A DNA stretch of 54,391 nucleotides, counting the filler, from Sphacelaria rigidula (taxonomy: Eukaryota), in assembly GCA_964200075.2 (NCBI GenBank). It is 3 parts of 3 records of this genome, joined end to end, with 100 filler letters (N's around TTAATTAATTAA, not from the genome) between each part and the next. Parts side by side here need not be neighbours in the genome. Positions count along the whole stretch, not along the records: positions 18,167 to 36,229 come from CAXNAA020000926.1; 2 more parts are not named here. One strand, given 5' to 3'. The notes below the pieces were generated by a model, which did not search any database, was not told the origin of the DNA, and was given only the letters and a program-made list of their open reading frames with translations. The translations under genes were made by a program, and so were the position numbers. Below, piece by piece: positions 11,201-36,329 of this stretch (position 1 is its first letter; each line of letters starts with the position of its first letter).

Positions 11201-14200
11201 ACTGATCAATGCCAGAGGACGCAATCAACCCGTGATCCCTTGATTTGCCGCGAGCGTACGTCAAAAGTTTGATATGTTACACAAGCCTGGCCGAGCAATG
11301 AGAGCAATGGTATATTGATGGAGATTCTTGGTTCGCTTAGCATGACTTTTGACTCATGTAGGAGACGTGCTTACTTCAACGTGGGTTCACAGAAACCGCG
11401 TGCGTTATCCGCATTCTGAGCTGTTTAACAGGAATACGCTGCAGATCTCCCGCTCCCCTTGCTGCAGTACCTGAGACATGCGTGGTCAACGGAGGGCCTG
11501 GTGGGAGTTGTGCCCTGGGTGGCGGACTTTTTGCGGATGATGAAGTGGGACGTCGTGTCCATGCAGGTGAATGGCATCGCATCCTTTCGGTGAACGCATG
11601 TCTGCCCCGCAAGGCGTAATATCCGCACGATGTTGCGTTGAAATATTGTATTCTTCTGAAACGAGAATTCCCCCCAATGTGTCGGGGTGATGGAATTGGA
11701 AATCCTTTCGTTTTATGTGCTCTCGTCTGCTCTAGGCTGATACCTATCGCAGCGTTTTAGTCACATTGGCGCAACTTCATGCTCGACCTCGCATGAGACC
11801 GGGACATCCAAGATTCACGCAAGGTCTCCTAGCCGTAAGCTGTGAGGTGAGTTTCGATAGGTGATCACATTGATAGGATGTCTAGGAGCATTCTGACGTC
11901 TCACCAGGTGTCTCTTCCACGCGGGAACGGGCTACGTGCTGAGGTTTTCATACGCCGTCGCTGATATTGACGTAAATTATTAAAAAAAAATCACTGTCAA
12001 ATAACATCTGCTGCCTGGTACGGTATGTTGCGTTACAAAAAATTACAGTCGTGTCACCGGGCTTGGCTGCATGCCGGCAACTCAACGTGGTGGCACGAAT
12101 GGAATAGCACATATAAAGATTGATAGATGTGGTGCAACTGCAATGCTGCGTCCACAAGCTTACAGGTCCCCAATGATTGAATTCTCGACTATTGGTGGGA
12201 TGTTGGGTATACTGAGCTAACATCGTGTAGAATGCCCGAGCACACCGTTGCCACCTAGATAAAATGATCGACGTGGCGCCGGGTGCCGCTGTTGTATCTC
12301 ATTGGTCACAGATTGAGACGCTATTCCAAGAGTTGGGTCATGATCTTGGTGCGCACGATTACCTCACATCATCTTCCAAACGAAGCGCTTCTGCGGGCGC
12401 CTTCAATACCCAAGAAGCTTTCGGCTCGGCACGCCATGCCCAGAGTGATACTTCGTACAGCTTACTGCAGACCTGTGACACCAGTGGATCTCAGCAGCAA
12501 GGTCTATTCGCCGAGGGAGGTCCACAACCCACCATGGGATCGTTGGACTCGGATGTCGTTCTGAGCCGCCGATTGATACAGAATTGCTATCCATTCTTGG
12601 AAGACGTGCTCACATTGATCGGTAACTTGGACCGAACCTGGAGACTGGGTTTAGCGCATAGCGGCGAATCCACCCCATTCGGGGCAACCCGATCTCCACG
12701 TCTGGTGGCAGGAGTTAGTCCACGCAGCAAGCGAATTATTAAGCCACATCCGTTGCGGCCGTTACCTACTATGCCGAGTGTCCCCGAGAATCGTGATCGC
12801 CCGGGCATAATGAGCACACAGGTGGAGAAACAGCATCGCGGCCCTCAGACGGACAGCGCACGCGTACGGCTAGTGGAGTCGTTCTTCCATTCCCAGCCAA
12901 GTGAGCTTCAGACTACTGCGGACTTCGTGGTTCGACGTGCTGTACACAATTCGTGTGAGGATACGTTGGCTACGCTGGTCCGGCCTGCCGTAGCCGCCAT
13001 CATCAGTCAGCTTGAGCTTGCCTCTAGAGACATCGACGAGCCTGGCCGTTCATCTGCTGTACACCATGCAATTAGGATGTACCCGTTGTCAAGAGACGGC
13101 CCTGATGGTAGTAGCTTGCCCGGGCAGCAGGAGCGCCAGCCAATGACCCGCCTTGAACATCGTGCCGCTTGGACAACAGCAGCACTGCAGCAATCGGTGG
13201 GATGTAAAGCAAAAGCGATGGCTGGGAAGCGGGCCCATGTTCTCGCTAGAGAAAGCACCTCGTCGTTAGCACCGCAGTCGCTCCCGCTCAGGTGAATCGA
13301 TGCGTCGTCTCGTAGTAGTGTTCGTCGGCGGGGCGCGTAGTTTCGACTGCCCGATTCACCCCCGTTAAGCTGCAAACTCCCATTTCAAAGCTATTGCTTG
13401 TCCATTTGCGCCAAGAGGGGTACTATGTTCACGCTAATGTCCACCAAATATTTGTAGCCAAAAACCGTCGGGTATTCTTCTGGGGGCAATATGTCCATCT
13501 CCGTGGTCATAATTTCGTTATCATCAAATTCCGCAACAGGGTTCGCGAAACAGCGGCGGCCATTGCTGGGCATCATGCGAAGTTCGCGGCGGAGAAAAAG
13601 ATCAGGGAATTGACAGCAACAGCGGTGCGTCAAGGACACAAGTTCCTCACCACTTGTATGTTTTGAATGGGTATTCGGACGCTGTTTGCAACCGTCGCCT
13701 GTCGGGGACAAAACTCTTCATGCCTTGTATGGTTCTGGTAGGAAGATCTTCGCACGTTTGCTCTGCCGAGAAAAAGTGTCTCCGCCCTGGAACGAACATG
13801 AGCTGACTTCGCTTTTTGCTGTCTTTCCTAGACGAGAGGCCGATGGCGCACGTCATATAGCGTGCATCAGGTTGACAATATGCATTTATATTCTGTCACT
13901 TGTGTCTGTGGCGCTGGGAGATTCAAATACTATGGGATTACATGTACTAGAGGCGACTCTAGTGGCCACTCGGGAAGCCTGAATTAGCTATTGCTGACAA
14001 GGTGCCATACCTGAAGAATCGAAAAACCTGTTCGTGGTTGTGCGGGACTCCAGTCGCTGGGTCAATGCCGTTTCACGTATCAAGCGTACAAACCTATGGT
14101 TCAGCCTTTGGTCTACTTGCTCTTCTCTCTTTTGGAAGCCGATAATCTGAGCACATACAAAAGTGTCGTGGAATATTTTCCCATGATGCGGCTCATCTGC

Positions 14201-15424
14201 ACCACTTCGCTTCACGTGGTGAGGTCAGCGTGGGTGCTCCCGAATTGACTTGCGTCCTACATCGTTGCGGCTTTCGCTGTGCCACAGGCGTCCGAGGCTG
14301 CAGCCGCTTACCACGCCCGAGTAGAAGAAGAGCTCAAAGAGAAGGTGCTTTTTCGGCAACAGCTTGACAGCTCGGGGAACCTTCCGGTAGCAGACGAGCG
14401 CAAACAATCTGCGACCCTTCTAGGCAGCACTATGCATTTTCGTGGGGATAAAGTTACAGGTGCCTCTTCCTCTGCGCCGATACTGACCGCATTGGTGTTG
14501 GAACTTGTGGATGTGGGCCAAAGTATCGGAGCGGATGTTGGCAGGAAACACGAGCTAATGCAGGATGCTCAAAGAGTGATGGCCATCAACGGTGAGGACG
14601 TTCAAGCTGTTGCAGACGTTGTGCGAGAGACCTTGCATGTGGCGCACAGCGCCGCACATCGTCAGCAATGTGGTATCGGCGAGAATACTCTCGGCTTCCC
14701 CGCTCACGTGCTGCAAACAGGTCAGCAAATAGATTTGGATGGCGTCATTAATGACACGGTGGGGTCAGACGGAAGCAAAATCGCAACTTTCCTGATCTTG
14801 CTGGCCGAGGTGTGGGCATCGTTGTACTCCCTTTCCCATAGTTGCCAACGCTCTGTCGTGTACTGTCTACAAGGGGGTGGTGCTGCTAAGGCGACAGTCG
14901 CTGGCGTTTATGAGGATCTCGTAGTCCTTGCATCCCTGGCGGTGAAAGCTGTCACGAGTGAGAGCGGGCATTTCCAAGGCATGGCAGGACAACCAGACGA
15001 AGTTACTACGACATATGTGGATTCCGTCGTTTCGAACATGCCCTCGACCATCCCTGCCACTCGTGAATGCCCCCCGTGGTTGCCGGCTCTTGAGCTGATG
15101 TTATGGGGTGCTATCTCTGCCGTGGAGGCGGAGAATACCCTGTTATCGCTTCTTAACGAAGCTAGTAGCGAACAGGCGGAACATTCACGGGCAACACAAT
15201 CTGGTATTCAACAGCCCTTGTTTGGCGCTTTAAATGTGGTCATCACTGCTCTTGTCGAAGGCTACCACAGCCGTGCGGTTCAGGAGATACCGCGTGTATC
15301 GGTAGCCAACGCGTTGGACTGCGCCGTAGATTCACTGGCAACATTCCCTGCAGGTTTATCCGCACGTGGTCGCTATCATCCCATGAATTTGTCGCGAGTT
15401 GCTGCCCGGTTGGCGGTTGTATAA
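2262..15424 (+). CDS. CDAN1: Codanin-1 (CDAN1/Discs lost)-like protein, multi-exon gene
   Basis: Phase-compatible exons: 2262-2345, 2529-~2676/2701, 2954-3078, 3498-3560, 3763-4027, ~4247-4722, 4876-5283, 5490-5677, [small phase 2->0 exon not found], 8176-8279, 8924-9134, 9864-10097, 10320-10544, 10976-11083, 11432-11566, 11736-11846, 12312-13291, 13540-13624, 14288-15424. Peptides match codanin-1 motifs recalled from the animal protein in the correct order: FVVVLLNFLRE, KRRIRPTTVS, LYVHTLLQRLVPNLATEMHL, FPGNQ|EFFYHVVMALDSHVLNRHL, VLAKFLGLLTF, VVPWVADFL, and the Codanin-1_C-like LVESFFHSQPSELQTTADFVVRR. Confidence 0.88.
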
Positions 15425-18066: not shown

Positions 18067-18166
18067 NNNNNNNNNNNNNNNNNNNNNNNNNNNNNNNNNN
18101 NNNNNNNNNNTTAATTAATTAANNNNNNNNNNNNNNNNNNNNNNNNNNNNNNNNNNNNNNNNNNNN
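18067..18166. other. Assembly gap with artificial TTAATTAATTAA spacer
   Basis: N-run + ttaattaattaa + N-run, 100 nt in total. Confidence 0.97.
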
Positions 18167-18169
18167 GGG

Positions 18170-18237
18170 GCGTACTCATTTGTTGCTTGCCTTAGTCGTT
18201 TGACCATTGACCACGCATCCCTTTCGAGACGGAGCAC
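18170..18237 (+). repeat. 68-bp G-tract-associated dispersed repeat, copy
   Basis: GCGTACTCATTTGTTGCTTGCCTTAGTCGTTTGACCATTGACCACGCATCCCTTTCGAGACGGAGCAC. Confidence 0.9.
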
Positions 18238-19574
18238 ATGGGGTATGGGGGGGGAACGAACCCCGAACTTGCTCGTCACCGTAGATCGAATAGATATCAC
18301 CCGCCCCGCCGTGAAGACGGCAACCAAGGCGTACTCTGGACCAGGGACATTCAAACACAGGGAGAACTCAACTTATTATGTGTTGAGCAGGGCACATTCT
18401 GGTAGCGATGCTGGAAAAAAGTACGTGCAGCTTCAAATAAGTTGCATTGTTCTTGTCCTAGTTCCGACCCTTTCCCTTCTCTTCCATGGGGAGAATGCGT
18501 AGTCTCTAGTGATCAACCATAGTCTTTGGGTGATCAACCATCTCTTCCGCGGTACAACCCCTTAGATTTTGGTATCACGAATTGGATTATGACTAACGCT
18601 CCCACACCGCATCGACTCGCGCGAAATAACTGCTCTCTTCCTACTCGAGTCTTCACGTCATTACTCGTGGAGATCAGATGTTCGTCAGAGAAAAACAAAA
18701 GCATCTACCGGGAGATGAAATCTCGCTCTTCCGCCTTACTTAGTTTCAGTTGCAGCGTCCAACCTGGACCACCGGAGCGCGTACCGTACATGCGAGTTGC
18801 GGTATGCCTGCTCGGGGATCAACAATTTTCTTCCATGGTTTATTCCTGACGGAGACAAACTGAACCTCAAGAATGTGGGAGGGGGCGAGCGAGAACGATC
18901 CGACTTTTGCTTTCATCAACGCATCAGCTCAAACAATCTTCAGACCCGTATACTGTCGATAGACGCGTCACAGTCTCTTCACACAACGTCTCCCCCCAGA
19001 AATTCCTGGCCGTTTCCACAGCATCAGCAGGAAAGTGGAAGGCTGATTACGTCCTCTTGATTCCACTTTGTTGTGAATTTCCGCCTACCGCGTGCCTTAG
19101 GAGCACATGCACCAAATGATACATTTTACCCAGGTGTTGCAGTCGTTGCGAGCCTTTCCTAAATTGTGGTGATAGAAAACGCGGAACAAAGGACCACCAC
19201 CCAACACAGCGACTTTTGCGTGTGATTTGCGATGACTTCTGCCCGTGTTTTGTGAAAGTGTCCGCGATTTCAAAAACGCTTTTGCTGCTGCCGGCGAAAC
19301 ACACGCCCCTGCGATTCGAACGCCATGCTCTTCAAATTGATTTTGCCAGGGCGTGCTACTTCGGCGACATTTTTATCGCAACAAGGACTCGTGAAACTGT
19401 GTATACACTGCACAAATCAAATGGTGGAACATGACATGCTGGATATAACATCGGCAGAATGAGATGAACAGGTGAAACAGCGAAAAAAACAAAAGTAGAG
19501 TCGCGCTGCATTCAAGGGGGGACAAAACAAACATGCAAGCGTGCAAAGCATCTATTATGAAAGATTTACCGTAC

Positions 19575-20084
19575 CTTCAGGCTCTCGAACGGGATTATGC
19601 TCTCAAACGGCGCATGCCTCATCCCGCACAAGTTCGACCACGGCCTAAAAGCAGCGCCGGCTTTGCCCATTTCCTCCGACACCGTGAGTCGATCCACAAA
19701 CTCGCCGAACGGTAACAACGTCCCACCCTCACCGCTCGCGTCGAAAATACTGCCAGGTGCACCCCACGCGCCCGTATTTGTGTCTGTAGCGGCGGCGATG
19801 TCGTTGTCCTTGTCCTTGTTGTTATCATAGTCCTTGTTTTCTTTGTTGTTGGTGCTGCTGCTGCTTAAAGGTTGGCCTTCCCGTGCACGCTTGAGGTCGA
19901 GGTAAGCCGATAGCAGTCGAGTCACGGGGTCGCGCACAACCGCAACCTTCACCCACCCGGATCCATTTTCCGCGTAGATGCGCTCGAGGAGTTCGCGGTT
20001 GGACGTGTCGAGGAGGGCTAGGCCCGATTCGTGGGGGTCAAAGAGCTTTGCCCTGTCGTCGTGAACCGCCCAGTCGTCCAACCC
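19575..20084 (-). CDS. Exon encoding the carbohydrate sulfotransferase (Sulfotransfer_2) 3'-PB region
   Basis: [22 protein letters not shown]...[20 protein letters not shown]...PFGEFV...FRPWSNLCG...[11 protein letters not shown]; lies within ORF 19566..20156; donor gtacgg. Confidence 0.88.
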
Positions 20085-23000
20085 CTTTTTGTTTTCAACG
20101 ATATATGAATGGATGGGGAATTCAAGTACTCGCAGATTAATTTTCCGTGTTAGCACGCTTGTAACTCCGCAGTGAGAAGAAAGTCCAAAAGATGTCCGGT
20201 ACAGCTAATTGCCAGCGCTCGAATGTACCATCATATCAAGCCCTACAAAATGGTCATTGGAAACTAAGGAACGCGTCTTCTGAAGTCCAGAATGTTTGTC
20301 CGTCGACCAGAGCGCATGAACTTCTCCGCAGCCGATATAGGAGAGTATACGGCTGACTTGCCCAGTCGAATGGACTGAGATACACAACAGGGAGGTTGCC
20401 ACCATGCGGTGGTGAGTTGCCCGCCTGGCATGACTGCACTGTGCCGGGGCCTTGTTTGTGATTGGATAAATTGAGTCAACTGCTGCGGATGTACAACAGT
20501 CTAGTCACTGATACATTTGGTCCCTCATCGAAGGGATCTTGGGATTGTTCTGTACACGGGCGTCAAGCAAAAGCTATTGCATGGTTGATTGATACAGTGA
20601 TCACGCCCATTATTGTAATTTGCTCTTCATGTTTCTCTACATCTGGCCTGCTTGGAACTGGGCTTGACATCGAAGCCATACTTTGCCGTGCGCCGAGCCG
20701 ACATTGACGTACCACCTATAGCCCGCGGGTCTGCGCAATACTAGTTGACGGACACTCTCAACCGAAATCGCACTACATTGATCCTTAATACACCCACCAA
20801 GTGTAAATACTTCAAAGTAGAGTAAAGCGAACCTCACGGTATGGGCGTCAGGGGTGCTACCTGACCGTGTCGTGCACGGAGAAGCAACGTCGAAGCGTCG
20901 CTGCAAGCAGAACGTTTCATTCAAGTGCTCCTGGTAGCAACGTGGCACACACATTCACCCCGGGGGCTCAAGGGTGGAACACAAGTCTACATGGTTGTGC
21001 TCACATGTGGTACCCGCATTTCGTGAAAAGCGTGTCGACGGGCGGCCAGTCGAGATTGAACATTGCAATGTTGTGTTCTGTAGGGTGCGATGTTTAGTAC
21101 ACCGCCTGGGGTTTTGACCGAGTATCACCGGTACCAGACAGGTCTGTGCGTTCTGCAAGCCTCACGTACCGGTAGCCGACAGTTCTGTGAGTTCTGGAAA
21201 CCTCACGTACCGGTACCCGATACAGCGCCTGTGATACCTGTACGAAATTAATACCCCTATCCGGAGCACGGGCATGCCCTCGTAAAAATAGCTGGTTGCA
21301 GGTCAGGGTTTCTGTACAACCTCCATACCGTATTCAACAGGTTCCGTAAGATCGTCAAGACTTCCACACGTCGGACGGCTCATGGGCTGCCTGAATACTC
21401 TTTGAAATTGGTGTAGTGGTCCGGATCATGAGCGAGCTCATCTAGTACTTTTGTTTTCACATCCGCTCACAGTAGCGCTGGACGGCAAGCATGCCAACAG
21501 CGGAAAGATAGCGCTGCGGCTACTCAGACCCCACTGTCACTTAATTTGCGTTCTCCGGCAACGGATGTGAGAATCCTCTCGATTAGTTACTCAAGGTATC
21601 TCATGAGATGTCCGACGTGTAAAGACTTCCATACCGGAATACCATACCTCACCGGAAATACTCGTACCCTTCCGAACATAGCCTTGGGTTTGTCTTTCCC
21701 TTCACCCGTCCTCAGAGGAATCTTAAGGGGGTAACGAAAGACCGAAACCAAACCCCAACCCAACTATGCGCAAAACCCTTATAATGTATCGAAGCATGGT
21801 TTTGGAAACATTTTAAGCTCATGTTCTGTACGGTACGATTTCGTTTTACCCGGGGTATGTTCCCGGGATATTACCCGTACTCGACAGGTTCAATGAGTTC
21901 TGTAAGCTTCCCATATCTAAACACGACAGTTCTGCGAACTCTGTGAGCTTCACATACCGGTATCCGACAGCTTTGTACGATCTGCACGAAATTTTTACCT
22001 TTACCTATGGCGCGAGTATAATCTCCTAGTACAATAGACATACCCGGTTGCCGATAGGGGTTTCTTTACAACCCTCAGACCGTACTCGAAAGGTTCTGCA
22101 ACGTCTGAAATAATTCCACACCGGTCCACCCGACAGCTCTACAAGTTCCGTCGGGCTTCCATACAGGTACCCGACGGTTCTGTGAGTTTTGTGAGAAACC
22201 GCATATCCTACCAAACATGCCCGTACCCTACAGAGCACAGCCTTACAACACCGCCCCTACACATATCCGTACCCTACAGAACACAGCCTTACAACGCCGC
22301 CCCTTCCCGTCAACTTGCGGGCCACAGCGACGGCAGACTGCACGGATCAACGACCTTCAACACGGCGTGCCGTTTTTAGTTCTATGGTCATGACGGCACA
22401 CGGCATAAAGTGCTGAGACGAAATATCTCGAACACGAAGACTTGAACACACCCTCCAAACACATATTACATTTTTTAAATGAATTTCACGCCCCCCCCCC
22501 CCGTTCTCGCGACGAGTCCGTTGTCCTCCGCCGTCATGGGCCGTTGACACATGACCAACCCCCGACCGGGGTGCGGCGGACGGTACCACTGCGATATTCT
22601 CAGGTGCAACGAGGATTTCATCTCTGGGTTACTGGTGTGAACGACAAATCTACGAAGAGAGAGGGAATGGTAACCATCGGGATCTAGAGTAAACAAGAAC
22701 CCTAATTTGGCGCTTTGCCTTGTTCCGTATGGTGTTTCCCCCCCGCATCAAGCCACTCGAACGCTCCAAGCCCCCTCCTTGCAACCGACCCCCAAAAGGG
22801 ATATTTTGCGGAAACGTGCCTGGTTTATCCTTCCACGGCGGGTTTGACTCGGAAATGGGAACTTGGCGGATTCCGCAGCCTCGGGATGACTTTTCCACTA
22901 CCCGAGAGGATCCCGACACACACACTACCGCGTTCTGCAGTGGATGCAGTTTCACCTTGAAGCGGTTCGAGGGGTTTCCGCACTCCTTACATTTTGTATT

Positions 23001-26000
23001 TTTTTTTTTTTTTCTTGTGTACGTCTATTATGAAACCACGGCTGGACTCCTGGGAGGTCAGTTAAAGTGGGACAATCAATGAAAGTGGGACAATCACCAA
23101 CAATCGTCAAGTACGCGGAAACGCATCGAACAAACCGGAGGGTATCTGGATTTCGGCCGAAGGGATTTCTAGCGTGTGACCACGAGTAAACTACGACGTC
23201 GACATGGAATGCAAAGATGCTCCACAACCACCCGACAGGGTAGGCAGAGCAGGTCCTTCCGAGGTTGTCCGAACCCGCCTACAGTGGCGAAAACGCCGAC
23301 AAGGCGCTTTTCCGAGAGGGATATGTTCGGAGGACATAGAGCGGCCTCAACCATAATACAGAAACACACCCAGCTCAGTTCGCGCCACACACTGGCGCGC
23401 AAACACTAAACGCGCGAAAACGTACACACCTGCATGCGCTTCGCGAGCATCCTGAACTGCATCGACCCCGTATTGGGCGGCGTGCAGAACAGCAGTTTCT
23501 TTTCCTCGATGACGATCGTTTCTGATTCATACAGCCATTGTTCCCTGCGTGATTTTGTTGTGGGTTCTCGTTGCTGTTACTGGTGGTGGTGGTGTCAACA
23601 TCATCCACTTTTCAAGGGTGCGAAAGGAAACAAACAAGAGCGGAACAGCTGAATGAAAATTGACGGATCGCGGGAGACTTGTTCCACTGCTCGAGGAGGG
23701 GTGCACGGCACGTTCCGGGTTGTACACACTCGCACTACCGTAAAAACGAGCGACACTAATGGCACCTCAATTTTACTTCTCAGGAGCGATGAATCCATGC
23801 TCCACATAACGCGCGTACTACTGGCCACGCCCTACTCCACTACTTCGGGTTCCCCCCCCCCCGTTTTCTTCTTTTCTTGTTCATGTCCTTCGCTATTCTG
23901 TTTCTCCTCTCTTCCTGCGCCGTGATATAGGAGTCATACTTTCAACATTTTCGATTGGAAGCGATTTTTTCAATTCTTCCGGTCACCACGACTCCTCACG
24001 GTTTCTGTTTGATCCCGAACTTTGGGAATAGGCACAAATCAGTACCCGGCACAAGTTCTGAGGAAAAAACCCGACCACGATCAGTTTTGAACGAAATACG
24101 GGCTCCCCGGGGGTCCTACGAGTTTACAGCCCCCGGTTCTCGCTCTCTGATGCTATTCGCTTGACCTAACCGATCCTGATTGTTATGATGAAAAATGATA
24201 TGCCTTCACCTTCCCTATTCTCGATATTCATTGCGCTCAAGCCTAAAAATCGTGTATTTGGGGCTGTATGCGGTCAATAACACCCCCTCGATAAACGAGC
24301 TTTTACACCATATCGTTCCGAAAACCCGAAACTGGGAAATATGTTTCGAGCACGATCTGCTTGTTTGTCAAAGGCCTACCGACCCTAAACCTCTCGAGTG
24401 AAGGTGACAAGTCGTCTGTGAAACAGTTCCGATCCAATGAAGGCCATATTTACAGTCGTACTACGTTATAGTGAGTTTTGTCTCCGTCCTGAGAGTCACT
24501 GCCCCAATAGTGCGGTTTCCAAATAGTTGAATTTCATCATTCCCAGTCTTTCTTCTTGCATAGCCTCCTCACCCGAAGCCCTGGCCGGGACCTGTCGGTG
24601 GTTTCCCCGAGACGGGTGATACTTTTTAGCCTGGCGTTTTCACTCGGTCCGCTTCCTACTGTCCTTTGCATTCTTCCCCTCCTCACGAGGGGCATTCAAC
24701 GAGTTTTTTAATTCATTCACCTTGCGCAAGTCTATATGCGACGGGCAGCCGAGCAATCCATTATTTGTGGTCCTTCCTTGAAGGTCTGCCTACTATTTTC
24801 GGCTTCTTCAGACACTTTCTACGATACCCCCCCCCCCAACAACAAACAGTTCAAAAATGTCCATACAGCGCCTGATGTTTGGGATCAGGCTGCATGAAGC
24901 GCCTCATATTGGCAACATTGGTGAGAACGAACCCAAGCGTGAGAACTCCCAGCTTCTCGTTGTGCTCGGCTTTTCCCATTTCGATTTACGTAAAGATATT
25001 GCCTCCCAAAACCATGCACGTTTCGGGAGGGGGCTATCGTAGAAAGTGTCTTCAGCGGGTATCCCCTTTCACTTACATCAGGTGACACTATCCGGTCAAC
25101 ACGGCTGGATACTCGACGGGATCGGTATATATGCACTAACGAACCGACCAACCAACCGATCATCGCGGCACTGCAAACGCCCTTCAGCAGTATCTGAGCG
25201 TGGTGTACTCGATACCGGTTCGTATCGCTGTATGTGACTGGATAAGAAGTGCAAAAAACAGTACTACGCAATTTTGAGTCGGAGGTTCGGCCTGATCGGA
25301 GAAACAACAGTTGCCTACAGATTGCCTGGCGATTATACTATGCAATCTCAGACGGTGACTAAATGTTGCTTACCGTACGATACCACGACACGTTTGGCAC
25401 CTTTGCTGCCCGTACAGTCGTTCCCCAGACTCGATACTGAAAGTGTCCATTGGTATACGTGGACTGAAATGGGCTGCGTTTTTGGTCTGGGAGGTTATCT
25501 ATTCCTTCGCAAGCATAATGACTTGACCATTTTCGACTCAAGGGAAACGTATGTACAAACAACGCGCACTTTCAACAGCAGCATGACAAAGGCTCGGACG
25601 ATTGGTTCAACGTATCGCACTCAAATGAAAGGATGTCGTACAAAAAACCTCGAGGAATGCAGACTCGAAAAATGAGTTTCACAGAAATCAGCTCGCCAAT
25701 CACTGTCATCATGATTCTCGGTACCTGATCAGGTCGAACAGTGCACGAAACTGGTTTGGCCAACGGCCACAAAGAGTGCAAGCGACACGCACAAGCTCAA
25801 AATAGGGATCAGAGGACGATCCGTTGATAAGTTCTGTCGGAGTACTTGGTATTTGGTGTTCGGTCAGGTCAGGTCAGGTCAAACAGCAAAAACAAAGGGA
25901 GTTTGGCCGCGGCAAATAAAAAAATAAGTGCTTCATTGCGGAAATCAAAAACAGAAGTAACCAACATGCTGACCTCGATTCCTCGGGAACCGGAAACTTA

Positions 26001-29000
26001 GTAAACGTCCTGGGCGCCAGAACGCTTCCCTTATGGGGCTCAGCGGAACATGACCAGATGTTGCCGTCGCGAATCTGACCCGACGCGTCTCCTCCGACAA
26101 AGATTTTCCACGCCTGTCATCGTTTTTTCACAAACGAACGTTCAAACACGAAAACAACAGTTTTGTATAATCAGTGAATAAAATGTCACGATACGCATCG
26201 GTTGGGTGTTGCTATAGCAAAATAGACAAAAAAAAGGTGGACTAGCGTGACTGTTCCCTCTTTGACTTATCCTCGGTATCCATCACGCTGCACAACTAAC
26301 TCTCCATTACTATATGCGCCGGTTGCTGCTCCTCCGTACCCTCGGTGCACGGTCTGGTTATCGCGTGCGAGCTGGGCACAGCGGATAAACGACTGAACGA
26401 GAAATGCATACGGTGTTCGGGGGCCACGACACGGAAATAGATGTCATGCTCCGGGGTATTGGACCACGCGTGTGCATTGTGGAAAGAGGTCGGCAGTGTG
26501 CGGCCACCGTTGTTTTGCCTCTCCCATAAGATCGGAAAATTACCCTCACTGCTTGGGGGAACCGCCGGAGACAGCTATAATTTCTGCCAGGTTCATTCAA
26601 CCGCCACAGCTCAGATTTAGCTGAGGACGATAAGACGACGAACGCAGCCGTATCTCGGGCTTTTACCATCATCCCCAGGCATGCCGCTATTTCGGTCACT
26701 CACATGTCTGAAATTCGAGCGCCTTTTCACCTTGGCACCTTGCATTGCGGGATATTTCAGTAATGTTTTGGTCCCGGGAATGCCTGCCTAGGTGCCACTA
26801 AAATTGTCGATGGTTCAAACGCAGGAAATGTGGCAAAGTTCCAAGCTCAAGAGCCCTCCTGCCATCCAAAATCGGGCAAATGTGTATACGTAAAGAGGTA
26901 GCTTTGGGGCCTCCAGTGTCCTCATCGTTAGTGTTCTGATCGTTAGTGCTACAGGCAGGGGTTCCTTGAATTCCCTCTGCTAGTGTCGCTTCTTGGCCCG
27001 CGGTGCGCGCAGGGCCACGCGAGCACGCCTTCATTCGGGGAGGGTTAAACGACATAAACCTGCTACTACGTCTGCCTACAAGTCTCTCAGCGTGTTACTG
27101 TGGATGACGCCTACCGCGCAGAACAGGCAGATGGCGTGCATGATGGCAGTGTGCGCTGCTAAACTCAAGAGTTCAATCCAGCCTTACCCCTGAGACATCA
27201 AACGCAGAGATCATAGAGTCCGCCCTCCTTCACGTAGTGGACGACTGGTTACCTTGCCGGACTCACGCAAGCAGTTGACTACATAAACAATCCGCAACGG
27301 GAGCTTGTATTCACACCCGAGACAACGCACTGCAAGATCTTTACTTTGTTCCAGGAACAGTCTACATGGAGGGTGGGGGGCGGCGTACTCCTTTGTTGCT
27401 TGCCTTAGTCGTTTGACCACTGACCACGCATCCCTTTCGAGACGGAGCACCCGAGGGGGGGGGGGGCGTACTCATTTGTTGCTTGCCTTAGTCATTTGAC
27501 CATTGACCACGCATCCCTTTCGAGACGGAGCAAAGGGGGAAGGGGGGGTTATAGATGTTGATATATGCTCACTGCCCTCTGTATCACAGCTCTACGAAGA
27601 TATCGACCACGAAAAATAGTCATTCCCTGGGTGGGATGCAGGCGATGGCACCAATGCTGGATGATACGTTCTGGCGGTGCTGCAGACGGATGGTACGGTG
27701 GCACGTGTCGCTATACAGACTGGTCCCAGCGGGAACAGCTTTTCGTGTTTCCGGGGATTGTTCGCGCGAGATTTGATCCCAGCTCTGAAGATTTTGAGCT
27801 GAAAAACGCGTCGGCAAGTGGACGGTCGTCATCACTGGGGTCTCTCGTTCATTGCCTTTTGATGACGTGGCCCGTTTGACTTCATCACCAGAGCAGAGAT
27901 CCGCCCTCATCTCTGGAGAAAACAACAAAACCAAATACCGACAGCGACGAATACAGCCTAGTCAATGCGCTCTTCTCTTCAAGAGTTGGGGTTTTCACTC
28001 TCAAATCTCGAGAAAAAAAAAAAGCCAAGGTATGTGCATCTTCTGGGCCTTGAAAATCCAGTACTCCGAAGTATATCATCGAAAATGTTCCCCTCAACAT
28101 TTGTTCGGGGCACAGCTTCGGAACAACGGAGGAGTTGAGTGTCGAAATGGGTGTGCTGTCCCCACTCTCCTATCAGTAATGTGTACATCAAATATCAGGA
28201 CTTTCGAGCAAGAACTCAGCAAAATGCTCGATTATGTGTTAGGGAAGAATCGATGCTTTGTGCAGAAGCGGGAAGATTTTTTTCAGACATTTATAGTGGT
28301 TGCAGTATCTAGCAGCCATTTCAGAACACATTGACGTGCAAGATTCCCTGTGTGATGAACCAAGTGAGTCAGTTCAGTGTGGGAGAAGCAGCAAGGTACA
28401 AGGGCAAGGGCATCCACGATGAAGTGACAATAATGGTGTCTGGGTTGAAGTCGAGGTTTATGAGATCCGGCAGGCGGGTGTGGTGCGACCATCAGTTGGT
28501 GACAGCATCGCGAATCGATGTTGTCTGAGATTTTTACAAGCGGCGTCACCAAGTCACCAAATCAGGACGGCATCACCGAATCACGAAATCAGGCCGCCGG
28601 GGCGGGCGGAGAGGGCAAGCACAGGGTTAGGAGGAGAGAGTCGACACGTCCCCAAGTCTACCCTCCTATAAGGATCCCACGTCTACGTTCATGGAGTTGA
28701 TACACGGGGATAGTTCTGCACTCGAAAGCAACTGCACAAAGTCGAACATTTAATCAATCCGTCCGTCCCCAGCTGCCGCCAACACGGGCCGTATTGGGTG
28801 TGTAGCCGGCATGGTGTAAAATCGTAAGAGTGTCGGCACGGTCAATGATGGCGCGGCGCGCTCCGGGGCGGCTGCGTGGTTACGGAAAATCTACTTCCTC
28901 GACCGTGTTTCGTCACTGCCCTTACGGCCTTCCCCAGAGACACTGTTGGTCTCTTTCGATGGGGCCATCTTGTAGCGGAGCTCTTCGTGCCGTAGGCTCG

Positions 29001-32000
29001 CTCTTGTACCTCATGTGCAAACGACTTCCGAGACGTGGAAATTCGGATTTTCTCGTGTAGAAACTGACCAACAACAGCGAGGATCCCAAAATGAGCGCCA
29101 GAATACATACACTCGAAGGCGAGAGTGCTGCGGCGGCCCGGAGACTGGAGCCGCCCAAAACCGTTCCAAATAGCACATGCCAAGTCATACTTCTTTTACC
29201 AGCCATATCTCAGGAAGGGTGGGTCTCGTGGTTAAGCGGCTGCACAATATCATATCAGAACATTTGTGGTTTCTTTTGCTTGTTCTGACAGGCTCACCGA
29301 TAGCAAGAAGTTGTCGGCGACGCTGCGGTAAGGCTGCATGTCCGATATATCCGGTCCCGGCGAAACGCCGTAGATGATCGACGGAGTAATTTTCTGCAAG
29401 GCACGTCGCAATGGCTCAAGATCCTCGTCCGACCTGATGCCCGAAACGCGACAAACAAGAAATGAAGTGCTGCCGCGTTCAGGTTCTTACACTGAGGAAA
29501 AAACATGGGGGAGAGCCAAGAACGTCAACGATCGTGTCACCCATGTGCATAGGAACGCGGGATACCGAGCAGGGCATCGGCAAAACGAACGTGTTACAAT
29601 AATAGTTATGTCGTAATAAAGGTTGGCACAAACGGGACAGGCGACAGAGAGAGAGAAAGAGAAAGCTTAGCGTAGGCTGGATAACCAGTCCTTTTTCGGT
29701 GAATCTACCAAAATGCAACTCAACAGCAATTTTACTCGCTGTGCATGCACACGCCGCAGTGCCCCGGTATAATTGGTAGGTCTCACAACCGATGAGGACG
29801 TCAAGTTGAGGGTTCAAATCTTGGCGAGATATGGTAAGTCTGTTTCACGAGTATCTAGATCCGAAACCGCGGGGACGCGAATCGCGAAGAAAGTATAGGG
29901 AGAGTCCACGCGGTGCGGAAATGCCAATTAAGTTCCCGAATCCGAAACGTCAGGGATGTAACGAGATGGGAAGGTGGGCGGGGGCGTACTCATTTGTTGC
30001 TTGCCTTAGTCATGTGACCATTGACCACGCATCCCTTCCGAGAGGGAGCACCTGGCGTGCACCGGGGGAGAGATGGGTTGATCCCTTCGAGAGTACGACT
30101 CGGCCTCGCTCTGAGAAAGGGGAAGGGTTTACGTGTGACGGGACAGAAACTGCACACTTTCCTTATTCAGATACTATATTCCCAAGGGTGCTTTGAAAAG
30201 GCACGGTTTCCAAGTCCTGCCTTCTACGGTCTTGAATATTGCGCGCCAAAATCGGCATGACTCATTTAATCGGTGCATCGCAATATCGATGAATCACCCA
30301 TTGGGCCAAACAAAGGCATCTGCTGAAATCCTGCTGTTTACCTCACGTTGATGTATTGATCGAATCTTGTATACCCTCTTCTCCTTCAGCGCCGGAAGTG
30401 TCCATTCGTGCAGTCGGCATCATTTCCACTTGAAAAACGAATGAAAATGATGACGATTTCACACACACACACTCTACGTGGTTGATTCGTCCGCATTGCA
30501 TACAACCGCAGTCACAAGATAGACGAAAGACATCCATGTCCGGGAATATATCGATACTTCCCCTGTCCCATAACTCTGTATCGTCATGTTTCTACGGGCC
30601 CTCAACGATGTCCGATTTGATTTTCGATTTTTTGGTTGCATTCGTTGACGTTTTTTAGCTAGAAATACCAATATTTCTACAACGTGGGTGCTTGACCCGT
30701 GCAGCATCGCGGCCGAGAAAAAGTAGGTCGGTCAAAATATGGCCATTTTTCGCTCTTTTTCCGGGTAAAGCATAGGAGACCCGGAATCGCGAAAAATTGT
30801 GAAACTAGGTGCGAAAACCTCAAAACCACCATTGACTTGGATATCTCCGTGACGTTAACCTACTCACGCCCCATCCAACAAATGTTCAGCATGTGATCGC
30901 GAGTGATCGACGTGGACACGTCCAAAATCGGTCAACATCGGGGTATAAGGGGACCAAAGAGGGCCAAAATGGGGTATATTTTGACATGAGTTCAGCGTTA
31001 AAAACGTTTTGCTTCCAAGTCAGCTTCGTCGGCGCGTAATCTCTCCAACTAGCCCAACTGTAGGATGATCGTCCGCGTTGAAACACCCAAACGATTAAAC
31101 GTCCATAACGATACAGACTCATGGGACAGAGGGAGTATACCCTTTTGGGCTGATCGAAATCTGACGAGCATCCCTACTGCTCACATGAATGCAAAACACC
31201 TCTCACCTAGCATCAAGTTCTTGCACTAGCTCCTTGACCGCCTCTTTGGTGCCGAACGTATCCCGGGGAAACACGAAGGAGAACTCATCGTAATGCAAGC
31301 CGTTTCTGCGGAAACAGGGGACGAGAAACGAAGAGGCGGGAAAAATAACAATCGAACGTGGCAAATCATAAAAATGGAAAGAAAAATGAGACGAAATCAC
31401 TGAAGATTACCACAGTTGTTCTTCCATAAGAAGCAATAAAACAGGAACCTATCTCTCGAAATTGGGACTACCCCTTCGGTATCTTTTGTGACCCACAATG
31501 GAGAGGAAGGGGGTGGTGAGAAAGGAGGGAGTACGGTAGGCTACACCAAGCAAGCTTTAGCCGAGTCGGGAACTATGTTCTCGGAGACGCGCCAACGCTG
31601 CGCTGATGCGTCGGTTGATTTCGATGAACATTTTCGCATCCGCACTGACAGCACCACCAAGGTAGACAAACTTCGCCGTCTGCGTGTACCGTTGGCCGGC
31701 CGCCTTGATGTGCAGGGCGACCTCCGTGGAACTGGATACTGATCGCAGACACATGTACTCTACCTTGCTCTCGGAGACCGTCAGGCCGAACTCTCGGTAG
31801 GTCACCACTACCACGGCCGTCATTCGAGCAAGGCCGTCTGAGGTCCTCGGGAGTTATGCCGGCGTCGTCCGCATGAAGCATTGCCCACACCGCACGCCGT
31901 ACCTTTTCCAGTGGTGTCTTTTTCAGGGGCTCACAACCGTCACCGTTTGACATACCATCTAGAAAAACCGAGTCTGAGACGATATATACGATCGCGTCGA

Positions 32001-35000
32001 CCAAGGCTGCGCTGAAGATGTTGAAAAAAGACAGGGACGAAACGCAGCATTCTCTGAGTCCCCGGCAAACGTGGAACCACCCTGACAGTTCGCCACCATC
32101 TAGCTGGACCTGAGCTATGTTCCCGCTGTGAACCATACGGATAATCGTGATTTACCGCGGCGGGACTCCGAACCAAGCGAGCACTTCTCATAGGAGCGTG
32201 TGGTTTACGGAATCGTAGGTTTTCTGCAGATCGATAAAACACATGTTCAGTGGGACATTGCTCGTCCGTCCCAACCCCTGTAGTGGGCGTACTACGAACA
32301 TCATGTCTGTGGTCGATCGTTGGCGCCTATATCCGCACTTGTCTTCCGAGAAGGCATCTGTTTCCTCACGGAAATCACTCAGCCTGTTGGCTACGATTTT
32401 TGAGCAGCACTTCAGCAGCATGTGCTACAAGTGAAATGCCCGTGTGGATACCACACTCGGTCCTATCCTTTAACTTGTGTAGCACTTTGATAGTGGCATC
32501 TCTCCATTCCTGTGGCCAGATATTCAAACCGCAGGGACGATGCCATGGAAGTGGCACAAAATCTCCGACGCCTCCCCGTTCAGCTCAAGCTTCACGATTT
32601 CGGCAGGTAGACTATCCGGGTCCGTTGCTTTGCCGTTCGACATAGCTCTCAGAGCCTCTCCTCTCTTACTTGGGCTTGGCGAATCTCCTCGCCCCTTCCC
32701 TCTCGTTCCAGGCTTGCTCGAACTTCGCCCGGATAGCAGCATCGTCGAACCGCCTCGGTATACGTGGCTTTCCGGTCAGACGGGGTACCACCGTTTTAGT
32801 GGCACCCAGGAGTACGTCGGCGAAGTTCGCAGCCAGTGAACTAACGATATCGCCAGGTATACTCTGTTTGAGCTTGCTGATGATGAGCTGGGTGAATTAC
32901 TTACGTCAGTCGGTGTTAGATATTATTGCCCGCCTGTCGATCGGGATGTGCCCAATTGGGATTCGTCCACGTCTGCTGTGTGCGGAGCGACCAAGCAGCC
33001 ACACTGAGGCGCACATGATATTGTGGGCAGAGCTCGGCAAGGTGGGAAGTGGGAAGGTAGACGGTGAGGTTGCGAGCGAGCCTGTGATGATCTCGCTGCG
33101 TGAAGATGTAGTCAATGCGTTTTTCGTCCGCGGGACGATTCGCAATGCCGTTGAACGTACGCGATGTGCTTCCCTTGGAGGTGGAAAATAACGTGTTGAC
33201 CAGGGCAAGCCTGTCGACGCCTGCAAGTTGCAGTAGAGAGGGGTCTTTGCTGTCGTTGGATCGGGACTCCCGGCCGTGTACCTCAAACATTGTACCTTCC
33301 TCCCCGTCTGTTCGCACCCCAGTCCTAGCGTTAACGTCCATTAACATAAACAGGTGGTGTTTGTTAGAAATTCGCTTCACAATGTTGTCCAACTCAGTCC
33401 AGAACACATCGCTTTCTCCTCTTGACTGATATGTAGTTCAAGGGAATAAGCAACTACGAAGGTAGCAGCATTTGATTCACCCGCGAGGTTGAAAGTCATA
33501 GGCATGAGGCGTTCGCCGATGAGTGCCCAAGTCGACATCGCCTTGTTGATGGGCGACTCCTTGATCACCAAACCGACCCCATGTTGTCCAGCCCTTCCCT
33601 TGCTCCCTTACGCCCCGCAACAGAAGATGCGACATCCGGCCGCAACAAACTCGGTTCGGGTCGATCTCCTCGTCTCCTGTAGTCTGATGACGTCACATCC
33701 GACTGCTTGGCATTTTTTGCGAGACCACCTCAGCATGGCCAGCTCCGTTCTTTCCCGTGAGGGACAGTGTTCGGACGTTATGGGTCGCCACTTTGAGCTC
33801 CTCGATACGTGACATAGCTGTAGCCTTCTCTTTTTTTCACACGTCTTTCTCTTTGTTCTACCCTCCTTTGTGGCTGGTTTGGCCTTCTAATTTCACGGGC
33901 GAGTTTTTTCCCTTCTGTTTCGATTCCTTTTTGGCACGTCTGTCACGATACTCGTCCTGCCTTTCGGTCTCGCGGGGAGGGTGTGGCCTTCCCAGCCCAA
34001 GTCGGCCGCTGTTCCTAGTCCGCCGAATCTGGTACTAACACGTGCCTCATCCCCGTCAACGTGCTTGCCGTGACAGTGTCCTGACGGCGGGCAAAACGCT
34101 GCAGCTGCGGGGTTTCATTTGCTTCCCAGTACAGGGTAAAGCTCCCAAGCTGCAGGACTGAGCCTGGAGTTCAGCAATGTCTGCATGACCCACTGCCTAG
34201 AATGTGTGTTGCATCATCACTGACACGAAACACAGACCAGTCAGTAGGCCGAGTTACTCTAACCTACCCGTCGGTTGTGTCGTCGATGAGGTTAAGTTAC
34301 CCCGACACAACCATCCCTAGTCGGGGGTGGCCATCTGGGGCATGTACATCCGAAATGGATATGATATCACAGAGGGATATCCCGGATAAACATTTACATC
34401 CCAGATGGCGAAGATCGTGGGATACTAGGCAGGGTAACCTTTGAGGGATCACTTATCGTGAAGTACGACGAGAAACCTTGCGCAGTGTGTAACGCTGCAG
34501 GTGCTAAAACCTCCAGCGCGTCATCACCTGGAGCGATTCAGGCTATATGGTAACGGTAGGACGCTGAAGAGAGGCACGTTTCGAAAGCAGACGCTTGCGG
34601 TGACGTACGCCATCTCATCGACAATCCGGCTGGGCGTGACGCTCACAATATATGTGGGAAGGTGCCATTAGACTGGCATCACCAGAATGATCATCAGTGT
34701 TGAGTTTCGCCATCACAGCATTTTTGCCTCGTTTGATACTGAACGCCAGCAGTTGGGCTAAACTGGGTGATCCCACAGAAACAACGTTTTTCAGGACTGG
34801 TCACTGCACATTTTTTGAGGTTCCTCCGCCCCAGATTTCCCACGCCAACTGGAGACAAGACCGAGCGCAAGTGAGTAAAATGGTCTTGCTACTGAGTTCG
34901 ATGTAAGGATGTACGTTGTGCCATCTCGAGTGATCAACGGTTGACACAATCGATCTCGAGAGGAAAACGAGTGAACTGGCTGAGTTGTGGAGTTGTTACC

Positions 35001-36026
35001 TGGAGACCACTCAGGACAACCAACATATTTTGGGGAGGCGAACAGATCCAACGAGTATCTTCGTGGCCATTTGGTCGCCACAGAGCGTTGCTGAATGTGC
35101 TCAGCAGAGCGATTCCAGGCAATTTTTCGTCGGCCAATAATATCAAACATGGACGCTTTCGGCCGATAAGAATAGGGAGGGGGAGAAGGGGGGACACTTC
35201 GAGAGAGCCTGGGGATCGACAATCTTCCATGAGTGTTCGGCAACAACAATTGTCACAACAAACTCTACTTGAAAACGGGGTAGCATAAGAGAGGTATGCG
35301 TAACCCCTGAGAGATACACCACAAATGCTTGAGCAAAATCACCTTAATCGAAGGAACCAAACATACACAGCATATCGGTGGGGGAAGCCAAGAGAATAAA
35401 CGGCATACTTACTCGATGAACGGCAGAGCGTAAGCCTCCTCCTCCGTAAGAACTGGAATGCAGCCGGCAGCAACAGCGTCAAAGATCCGACGACTTGTCG
35501 GGGAATCTCCTCTGGGACAGAAGCAGTACCTACTGCGAGATATGTGTTCCGCGTACACGGTTGCGTTTTCTGACCAACTGAAGGGGTGCTCGTCGAGTTC
35601 GACAATACTTCCTGGAGACAGATCTCTCGTCACCTGGTCATGATCCACCACATGCAAAAACACACCGGGCGACAAGGCGGGTTCGTGTGCTTGCTCATCG
35701 CAGTGATTTTTCAGGGGAAAACATGAATCAGTGCAGGTCTTTCGATGAGCTTCGCAGTATCTCCCTTGCTGCGGAGTACGTACCTGCTGGAACGTTGCTA
35801 CATGGCCACTTCAAATAATTTTCTCCCGGAAATACATCACTCCGTTAGCCATCACCACCAACCACTCACCATAAGGTTGTCCCTCTCTGGCCGCTTTCTC
35901 GACGCGCCGGCGAAAAAAAAAGGGATGCTTCGTTGTTCTGAAGGACGACCACCGATCAGGGCTGGGGTGGTTACAGCGCTGCTGGCCACGTACGGAAGCG
36001 TAACCATGCGCCGCTCGCATCCCCAT
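19575..36026 (-). CDS. Putative GT47 (exostosin) glycosyltransferase-sulfotransferase fusion protein, partial (5' and 3' exons unresolved)
   Basis: Exons read 5'->3' on the minus strand: 36026-35870, 35633-35413, 31305-31207, 29433-29298, 26113-25974, 23544-23430, 20084-19575. All have AG/GT boundaries with compatible phases (0,2,2,0,2,0). GT47 signature: [36 protein letters not shown]...LPF...LHYDEFSFV. Sulfotransfer_2 signatures: [18 protein letters not shown] and [15 protein letters not shown]. Confidence 0.75.
21066..22292. mobile_element. Cluster of non-autonomous TIR elements with internal taccggtacccgacagttctgt subrepeats (possibly hAT-type)
   Basis: Left end tgtgttctgtagggtgcg (~21072). 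Right ends cgtacccttccgaacatagccttg (~21663-21686) and ccgtaccctacagagcacagcctt (22221-22244, duplicated at ~22268-22290). Many degenerate internal repeats. Confidence 0.7.
25974..26113 (-). CDS. Linker exon joining the GT47 and sulfotransferase domains
   Basis: gacag|GCG TGG AAA...GAA TCG AG|gtcagc; 140 nt with no stop; encodes [46 protein letters not shown]; phase 0 in, phase 2 out. Confidence 0.7.
27383..27532 (+). repeat. 68-bp G-tract-associated repeat, two tandem copies separated by a G-run
   Basis: 27383-27450 and 27466-27532, each near-identical to 18170-18237. Confidence 0.9.
29984..30051 (+). repeat. 68-bp G-tract-associated repeat, copy
   Basis: Same unit with about 4 substitutions, preceded by gggaaggtgggcgggg. 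Confidence 0.88.
30557..31135. mobile_element. Stowaway-like (Tc1/mariner) MITE
   Basis: TA|CTTCCCCTGTCCCATAACTCTGTATCGTCATG ... CATAACGATACAGACTCATGGGACAGAGGGAG|TA: ~32-bp TIRs resembling CTCCCTCCGTCCCA, with a TA duplication. Confidence 0.85.
31555..34440 (-). mobile_element. Decayed non-LTR retrotransposon (LINE, APE + RT, RTE-like) inside an intron of the GT47-ST gene
   Basis: Frameshifted fragments in order. [14 protein letters not shown] (~33800), [76 protein letters not shown]. 3'-truncated near 31555; the 5' boundary is approximate. Confidence 0.9.
35413..35633 (-). CDS. Exon encoding the GT47/exostosin core motif
   Basis: [74 protein letters not shown]; acceptor gaccag, donor gtaagt. 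Confidence 0.9.
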
Positions 36027-36229
36027 CTGATGCCACATATCCCATAGCGCACGGTGCGAGCGTTGGCAATGAAACAATAGGTACCTTAGAGCCGGGAGGA
36101 GCGGGGAGGAGGCGGTTCAGGTGCGGAGCAAGAGCGGGGGGGGGGGGGGGGAAACCCCCGGGGGGGAGAACCCGCGGACCCCCGGGGGCGAAGACCTAAG
36201 TCGGGAGAGGGTCGGGGAGGGAAAGAGGG

Positions 36230-36329
36230 NNNNNNNNNNNNNNNNNNNNNNNNNNNNNNNNNNNNNNNNNNNNTTAATTAATTAANNNNNNNNNNNNNNN
36301 NNNNNNNNNNNNNNNNNNNNNNNNNNNNN
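36230..36329. other. Assembly gap with artificial TTAATTAATTAA spacer
   Basis: Same 100-nt construct, flanked by low-quality G-rich sequence. Confidence 0.97.

Follow-up and report, generated by a model that had tools for sequence, protein, structure and literature searches.

A GT47 glycosyltransferase fused to a sulfotransferase-fold domain with replaced catalytic residues in the brown alga Sphacelaria rigidula

The animal bi-domain exostosins EXT1, EXT2 and EXTL3 are type-II Golgi proteins in which an N-terminal glycosyltransferase family 47 (GT47) domain is followed by a second catalytic-type domain (GT64), and the GT47 domain of EXTL3 is described, in the accessible part of one source, as inactivated yet retained (PMC9178029). 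Fusions are also reported from the fucan pathway of brown algae, where the available portion of PMC6418280 gives FK-GFPP and a sulfotransferase-alpha/beta-hydrolase in Nemacystus, with mRNA support. According to the accessible text of a 2026 review, no brown-algal glycosyltransferase or sulfotransferase of sulfated-polysaccharide synthesis has been characterised biochemically, and the fucosyltransferase shortlist that this text quotes from Mazeas 2024 comprises GT10, GT23, GT41 and GT74 and no GT47 (PMC13380512). Here we describe a gene fragment of Sphacelaria rigidula (assembly GCA_964200075.2), found in a window of 54,391 nucleotides (nt), that encodes part of a GT47 (exostosin) domain and, behind a conserved linker, a Sulfotransfer_2-type domain. 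An earlier note on this DNA had proposed the fusion from exon phases, had called the product a candidate polymerise-and-sulfate enzyme, and had named junction reads, a Pfam scan of the product and a search for the same two-domain architecture as checks.

Splicing, conservation and extent of the fused gene

The transcript evidence comes from contigs of four runs of one study, aligned to 18170-36225. We take these runs to be RNA because they hold only 12-14% of the words of 19560-29500 and show spliced joints; the contigs are short, with no single molecule shown to span the whole gene, and all joint counts given here are among the joints listed. The last GT47-side exon (29298..29433, minus strand; RSDEDLEPL…) ends in phase 0 with ...NFLLS at 29298 and is followed by GT. 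The bridging exon (25974..26113, minus strand) is an open 140-nt stretch between AG and GT that encodes the inter-domain linker (AWKIFVGG…IWSCSAEP…, reading through to PVPEES) and exits in phase 2, and the exon at 23544 follows AG and requires two upstream bases for its frame. Joints 26112|29297 and 23543|25973 are present in 4/4 runs, with CT..AC ends on the plus strand and with equal contig depth within each run (39.6, 44.9, 40.8 and 62.6), and in a single 254-nt contig (X4 record 23) the complete 140-nt exon is flanked by 42 nt from the GT47 exon and 72 nt from the sulfotransferase exon. Both junctions claimed in the earlier note (29298->26113 and 25974->23544) are thus found as GT..AG introns, together on one transcript contig and in the transcript contigs of every run, and the 140-nt exon that it had proposed, with its phase-2 exit into the exon at 23544, agrees with the sequence and with the open spliced frame. 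Its central claim, a GT47-Sulfotransfer_2 fusion in one gene, is borne out by this spliced, in-frame transcript through the bridging exon.

The remaining joints are equally regular, with 20083|23429, 29431|31205 and 31305|35413 in 4/4 runs and 35629|35866 in 3/4, and all six introns are GT..AG on the minus strand when the stated ambiguity of the joints is allowed for. Contig depth is approximately 35-70 over exons and approximately zero in several intron bins (e.g., 23588-24189 and 26598-27199). The seven joined exons give an open frame of 479 amino acids (aa), in which 453/453 residues equal those of P0001 counted from its first Met. P0001 is the public model of this locus, an NCBI “unnamed protein product” of 455 aa labelled Sphacelaria rigidula that matches the translation of 19575-20060 at 100% identity and contains both PF03016 (exostosin) and PF03567 (Sulfotransfer_2). 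The Pfam check accordingly returns both families above their cut-offs in the product, PF03016 with 74.6 bits (cut-off 33.4) and PF03567 with 32.7 bits (cut-off 22).

Gene models from Ectocarpus, Scytosiphon, Laminaria, Undaria and Ascophyllum have the same order of GT47, linker and Sulfotransfer_2. The orthologues include Undaria P0015 (807 aa), Ascophyllum P0021 (804 aa), Scytosiphon P0020 (1077 aa), P0014 (1053 aa), P0009 and P0023 of Ectocarpus spp. and five Laminaria digitata models, and in word-based searches 18/18 matches were brown-algal or EukProt models with this build, whole or in part. PF03016 and PF03567 were both found in P0015 and P0003, as in P0001. An alignment of 14 sequences shows a hydrophobic N-terminus, the GT47 domain, the linker and a sulfotransferase-like part with a variable low-complexity insert, and four linker residues (W410, C412, R425 and P431 in P0015 numbering) are invariant throughout. 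The architecture search named in the earlier note therefore recovers the same order in several brown algae with conserved linker residues. Its remark that the sulfotransferase has no separate anchor exon also stands: none appears at the locus, and full-length orthologues have a single N-terminal anchor before GT47, with hydrophobic N-termini in that position in P0014, P0020, P0019 and P0015.

A possible objection is that the fusion is an artefact in which two neighbouring genes are joined by read-through or by merging of gene models, their normal products being separate. Public models with the sulfotransferase-like part only do exist (P0004, P0005, P0006, P0008, P0024 and P0025), and the transcript contigs, with joints known only among those listed, cannot prove one full-length molecule. 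However, the models with PF03567 only begin inside the linker or inside GT47, with no anchor of their own, and are therefore partial. The linker residues are invariant across orders, the bridging exon is in frame at both ends on one contig and in 4/4 runs, and related proteins with GT47 before the sulfotransferase-like part nearly fill short metagenome contigs (P0065: 669 aa on 2,454 nt). We consider an artefact extremely unlikely and are nearly certain that the fused gene is real, expressed and conserved.

The GT47 side begins, within the contig, with exon 35870..36085 (minus strand; IPFFFAG…PERDNLM), recognised by tblastn and bounded by a GT..AG intron, whose 3' end is set by joint 35629|35866 (3/4 runs) and whose 5' end is uncertain, the frame being open to 36085 with an AG after a pyrimidine tract. 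Exon 35413..35633 (minus strand) matches PF03016 with E 1.4e-15, has joints on both sides and holds the conserved C-terminal nucleotide-sugar motif, which matches EXT1; exon 31207..31305 (minus strand) is supported by tblastn and by GT..AG joints on either side, 31305|35413 and 29431|31205. The open reading frame (ORF) at 35409-35810 alone scores 57.8 bits against PF03016, and full-length orthologues score 116-141 bits. The contig covers approximately profile positions 149-281 of 293, and the N-terminal half is carried by the orthologues. The motif CF.P.GD...SRR..DA..AGC.P is invariant in 14/14 sequences and aligns with EXT1, EXT2 and a viral exostosin. Its Asp aligns with a Glu in the matching helix of EXT1, presumably Glu349 if the numbering offset of the PDB chain is as we assumed. 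In the accessible part of PMC9178029, a conserved Asp/Glu of GT47 helix C-alpha-4 is described as binding the nucleotide sugar. No signs of GT47 inactivation were seen in the parts of the sequence examined, and, judged by this motif, the domain looks intact.

All seven exons lie on the minus strand of one contig of 18,063 nt (18167..36229), which is cut off from its neighbours in the window by spacers on both sides; the contig on record for P0001 has exactly this length. The window consists of several contigs joined by such artificial spacers, so flanking sequences are not necessarily genomic neighbours. The two spacers (18067-18166 and 36230-36329) are each 100 nt long and made of 44 N, TTAATTAATTAA and 44 N, the TTAATTAATTAA element having stops in all six frames; positions 641-650 are listed alongside both blocks. 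With five orthologues as tblastn queries, the exons correspond to residues 303-929 of Ectocarpus P0014 (1053 aa), so the locus is a fragment, approximately residues 300-930 of an orthologue of approximately 800-1050 aa, of a single brown-algal gene that is expressed. Both contig ends interrupt this gene: the window lacks the anchor, the N-terminal half of the GT47 domain and the C-terminal tail, and the first ~300 and last ~125 residues of the orthologues give chance-level matches only in it (tblastn, E up to 50). A weak minus-strand tblastn match at 10003-9872 falls on a different contig.

The missing residues, and the fact that the public model has only 455 aa, might suggest that the copy in this contig is a truncated or decaying paralogue and not a working gene. 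The contig ends at 18167 and 36229 account for the missing parts, and the boundaries of the fragment are those of an interrupted gene: upstream, the frame closes at 36086-36088 beside a plausible acceptor, 144 nt from the contig end, and downstream a GT donor follows 19575, where one transcript contig begins exactly. The seven exons are open, the locus is transcribed and spliced, and residues invariant in the family are kept. We therefore regard a decaying paralogue as very unlikely. Other contigs must carry the anchor, the first half of the GT47 domain and the tail, and the next exon after 19575..20084 is beyond the contig end.

The second domain and its replaced catalytic residues

The second domain begins with exon 23430..23544 (minus strand), which provides the PAPS-binding strand-loop-helix (PAPS, 3'-phosphoadenosine 5'-phosphosulfate) with Asn at the family Lys site, as judged from tblastn, the joints and column counts. 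The larger exon 19575..20084 (minus strand), identified by PF03567, tblastn, joint 20083|23429 and the GT donor after it, contains LFD with Phe in place of His, the 3'-phosphate motif, the low-complexity insert, AFRP with Ala in place of His, and IIPFESLK. PF03567 is matched with 33.8 bits in P0015 and 27.8 bits by the exon taken as 19566-20204; in P0014 the score of 19.5 bits is below the cut-off of 22. The fold was modelled with AlphaFold2 on P0006, a naturally partial Ectocarpus gene model (linker plus sulfotransferase-like part), from a 53-row alignment. The mean predicted local distance difference test score (pLDDT) is 81.5 and the predicted template-modelling score 0.80, with low confidence only at the insert (179-208) and at 311-320. 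The Asn sits in the loop that connects strand 51-54 to helix 61-71, and the RDP motif belongs to the element made up of strand 117-122 and helix 125-148. With pLDDT values of 78-92, linker residues 11-30 are predicted to pack on the domain.

The best 23 of 48,161 chains compared with this model all have the sulfotransferase fold (Z 7.9 to 4.4), comprising 22 PAPS-dependent sulfotransferases and retinol dehydratase 1fmj, which binds PAP (3'-phosphoadenosine 5'-phosphate); HS6ST (Z 7.8) and HS2ST (Z 7.1) are among them. The modelled second domain thus has a sulfotransferase fold. A Foldseek search of the PDB with the modelled domain gave no match at E <= 0.001, and a PDB sequence search with the sulfotransferase-like part gave nothing beyond the 3'-phosphate-binding (3'PB) motif (E 0.2-2.3). 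In the ESM Atlas the C-terminal part led to generic Sulfotransfer_2 clusters (0.90-0.91) and one viral cluster, which we treat as leads only. The earlier note had drawn an analogy to HNK-1ST and its glucuronic acid acceptor; sequence and profile searches gave no link of the C-terminal domain to HNK-1ST.

For the active-site columns, 70 hits of at least 280 aa were aligned to the family profile with hmmalign, and 11 relatives with the loop Lys were aligned separately with MAFFT (set A3). The site of the PAPS-loop Lys is Asn (PPNTGS) in 22/22 members of the brown-algal clade that cover the loop, this locus included, and 23 more distant relatives carry Lys. At the His position of the IHNP-type motif, 21/22 clade members have Phe (one gap), and 15/23 of the Lys-bearing relatives keep the His by hmmalign. 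In the HF[RK]PQ motif, Ala takes the place of the His in 20/22 clade members (two gaps); in the Lys-bearing relatives hmmalign does not align this His, and in set A3, where the two positions are H117 and H214, both His are invariant (11/11) and the Lys is nearly so. What the clade keeps is the TGS of the PAPS loop and the 3'-phosphate motif RDPVTRLLS, whose R, R and S are found in 21, 21 and 20 of 22 members (23, 23 and 22 of 23 in the Lys-bearing relatives) and which aligns with the same motif of heparan sulfate 3-O-sulfotransferase 3A1. Loss of the loop Lys extends to distant proteins of the GT47-first order, with F in P0065, Y in P0073 and P0170, G in P0157 and a loop with no Lys in P0173.

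To our knowledge, no active PAPS sulfotransferase lacks a Lys or Arg in this loop. In the accessible part of PMC11625862, the PAPS-loop Lys (Arg in one case, Stf0) is catalytic and stabilises the transition state; the loop Lys/Arg, the PB-helix Ser and the sheet define the sulfotransferase family; and the catalytic base (His or Glu) is placed outside the conserved regions of PF03567. Asn at the Lys site in 22/22 members and the replacement of two family His stand against the coupling of chain extension and sulfation that the earlier note had inferred. The fused gene itself is supported, and the label “polymerise-and-sulfate enzyme” is, from the residues at these sites, doubtful.

We propose that the protein would be of the type-II Golgi kind, with an N-terminal anchor, a GT47 domain, a conserved linker and a sulfotransferase-fold domain. 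The GT47 domain would be the working catalyst, adding a sugar to a matrix polysaccharide, with donor and acceptor not readable from the sequence. The C-terminal domain would be a former sulfotransferase that no longer transfers sulfate and serves instead as a module binding PAP(S) or a sulfated glycan, by which glycosylation could be linked with genuine sulfotransferases or with the chain's state of sulfation. Such a retained, inactive module would resemble the inactivated second domains of bi-domain exostosins. Judged on sequence patterns, the core of this proposal, a GT47 glycosyltransferase carrying a C-terminal ex-sulfotransferase that binds PAP(S) or sulfated glycan with no sulfate transfer, has in our estimate an even chance of being correct. 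More tentatively, brown algae and marine eukaryotes known only from metagenome contigs could share a Golgi GT47 family whose pseudo-sulfotransferase reads PAPS supply or sulfation pattern and thereby gates the extension or branching of sulfated matrix polysaccharide.

Several points weigh against the proposal. The column assignments rest on hmmalign and MAFFT and not on structural superposition; the gene is incomplete, its own anchor and tail being unseen at the locus; and the two replaced His are only candidate catalytic bases, the base of this subfamily never having been mapped. Conservation is also relevant. Over six orthologues (15 pairs), the N-terminal core of the sulfotransferase-like part is the most conserved region, with a mean pairwise identity of 0.70 that peaks at the nucleotide-binding loop and the 3'PB motif, followed by the C-terminal half of GT47 (0.59), the later sulfotransferase-like core (0.56), the equivalent of the linker exon (0.29) and the low-complexity insert (0.18). 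The strong constraint that this implies for the sulfotransferase-like core fits an enzyme as well as it fits a binding module.

An enzyme is what the competing explanation supposes: a true bifunctional protein in which GT47 adds a sugar and the C-terminal domain sulfates the same or a neighbouring residue through a non-canonical PAPS site, the Asn and other invariant residues specific to the clade standing in for Lys and His. It would account for the PF03567 score above cut-off, the sulfotransferase fold, the intact 3'-phosphate motif, the retained TGS of the loop and the location of the highest identity at the putative nucleotide site. Proteins of the reverse order that keep Lys and His (P0084 and P0090) show in addition that both activities get coupled in one chain. 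Against this, no clade member of the 22 has the Lys/Arg that the available part of PMC11625862 treats as defining and catalytic, and that text names only Lys, or Arg in Stf0, at the loop position; both His that are invariant in Lys-type relatives have become non-polar residues. We consider the bifunctional explanation somewhat unlikely, though kept in play by the strong constraint on the second domain.

Relatives of the fusion and sequences around the gene

A profile of the linker and sulfotransferase-like part, searched against 1.84 billion representatives, found only 285 proteins at E <= 0.001 and 42 at E <= 1e-30. Among 30 longer hits scanned with Pfam, PF03016 (E <= 0.001) precedes the sulfotransferase-like part in five (P0065, P0073, P0157, P0151 and P0163), with the match weak and below Pfam's cut-off in P0151 and P0163; in P0065, PF03567 is not found at E <= 0.001, and it is the family profile that identifies the sulfotransferase-like part. 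P0170, from Scytosiphon, is in the same cluster as P0073. The reverse order, PF03016 after PF03567, occurs in three of the 30 (P0084, P0090 and P0137). P0151 and P0163 come from the green alga Ostreobium and P0137 is a transcript of Gymnodinium smaydae; the rest are from metagenome or Logan contigs. In three cases the fusion protein accounts for almost the whole contig (2,454 nt for 669 aa, 2,737 nt for 848 aa and 3,069 nt for 966 aa). P0084 and P0090, which keep the loop Lys and the His, nearly fill contigs of 2.7-3.1 kb; P0137 has no aligned residue in the Lys column, and in place of the HF[RK]PQ His it carries Glu. P0084 and P0090 may be genuinely bifunctional enzymes.

A quick tree on 120 core columns is to be read as the result of a short search with some long branches, unrooted and with the trait columns included. 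In it, a branch with a Shimodaira-Hasegawa-like approximate likelihood-ratio (SH-aLRT) support of 96 sets apart all 15 rows with GT47 before the sulfotransferase-like part, together with four partial models. P0084 and P0090, the only reversed-order proteins in the tree, fall across this branch among stand-alone Lys-type proteins, and the two orders are therefore probably separate fusion events.

Other arrangements and copy numbers were also recorded. P0067 (1908 aa, with six Pfam stretches), P0112, P0132 and P0096 have several tandem Sulfotransfer_2 domains, some of the repeats having no loop Lys (G or E in the aligned copy). P0003, P0019 and P0022 (EukProt g9922.t1, g9923.t1 and g9924.t1) are three consecutively numbered, full-length models of the GT47-sulfotransferase-like family from one species, and their numbering points to genes arrayed in tandem. 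At least five partial models of the family come from Laminaria digitata, so the family is multi-copy in some brown algae.

With respect to the gene's own sequence, the bridging exon 25974..26113 drew weak tblastn matches from two Laminaria models. An 83-nt dispersed repeat on the plus strand lies at 18170-18252, 27383-27465, 27466-27548 and 29984-30066 (87-100% identity), two of the copies in tandem inside an intron, and G-rich runs follow it. Its summed contig depth is approximately 30,000 in all four runs, with many joints and loose ends to other loci, and it has the look of a short repeat or mobile element transcribed in abundance; Rfam gave no match on contig 18167-36229, this repeat included. 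Inside the 4.1-kb intron 31306-35412, a degenerate retroelement remnant lies on the gene's strand (approximately 31573-33437, minus), where RVT_1 is matched below threshold by the ORF at 32188-32424 (25.4 bits, cut-off 29.6; E 1.4e-05) and the neighbouring ORFs have no Pfam match.

The intron stretches 27802-29005 and 24792-25393 have summed transcript depths of 24-749 and 3,300-5,000, respectively, above the exons. The contigs there show mismatches (at 28336, 28346, 28409 and 28648) and thus probably come from other copies of repeats. Alternatively, the transcribed stretches may reflect an internal promoter or an alternative exon; Pfam found no match in the seven ORFs of the transcribed-looking stretch at 27.6-29.2 kb. 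On a neighbouring contig, plus-strand open frames of 354 and 391 aa (12231-13295 and 14249-15424) are likely exons of an unrelated gene.

Significance and comparison with known systems

The architecture is already in public gene models, including the model of this locus. No literature describing a GT47-sulfotransferase fusion was found, with a 2023 review of brown-algal sulfotransferase clades and Michel 2010, both of which may bear on novelty, lying outside the search. The available portion of supplementary file 3 of Mazeas 2024 (PMC11468063) makes no mention of fused or modular proteins, the 30 of its 136 GT47 rows that were examined being plain “GT47”, and Lu 2020 (PMC7291590) has no mention of exostosin or GT47.

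A conserved link between GT47 and a sulfotransferase fold is a case of “guilt by fusion” that points to action of this GT47 clade on sulfated polymers, and it offers a concrete protein to express and assay, with P0084 and P0090 as natural and, from their retained residues, probably active comparators. If the pseudo-sulfotransferase proposal were true, the GT47 would be marked as a builder of fucose-containing sulfated polysaccharides, and the module would be the first with a sulfotransferase fold to be described as regulatory in polysaccharide synthesis. Should the domain instead be active with no loop Lys or Arg, this would be equally new mechanistically. In either case, the loss of Lys and His warns against counting PF03567 hits as active sulfotransferases in surveys of algal genomes.

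Compared with known systems, the protein is close in layout to the bi-domain exostosins, with which it would share the type-II Golgi build and an N-terminal GT47 joined to a second catalytic-type domain. As in EXTL3, one of two domains would be inactive but kept, although in EXTL3 it is the GT47 domain, and the second domain is GT64 in the exostosins and a sulfotransferase fold in this family. The GT47 match to EXT1 is remote (profile E 1.1e-05), and nothing at this locus indicates glucuronyl transfer. NDST (heparan sulfate N-deacetylase/N-sulfotransferase) differs in that its partner domain is a deacetylase and in that, according to the accessible part of PMC11625862, its sulfotransferase is active with a loop Lys, where the brown-algal clade has Asn. 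The brown-algal fucan-pathway fusions are alike in joining consecutive or related steps of sulfated-polysaccharide synthesis, but they have other partners, and GT47 and exostosin go unmentioned in the available portion of PMC6418280. The nearest sequence relatives of the sulfotransferase-like domain are the Lys-bearing Sulfotransfer_2 proteins of algae and protists, some of which also combine PF03567 with PF03016: in P0084, P0090 and P0137 the domain order is reversed, and P0151 and P0163 of Ostreobium quekettii have a weak GT47-like stretch before the sulfotransferase domain and, unlike the clade described in this work, keep the loop Lys.

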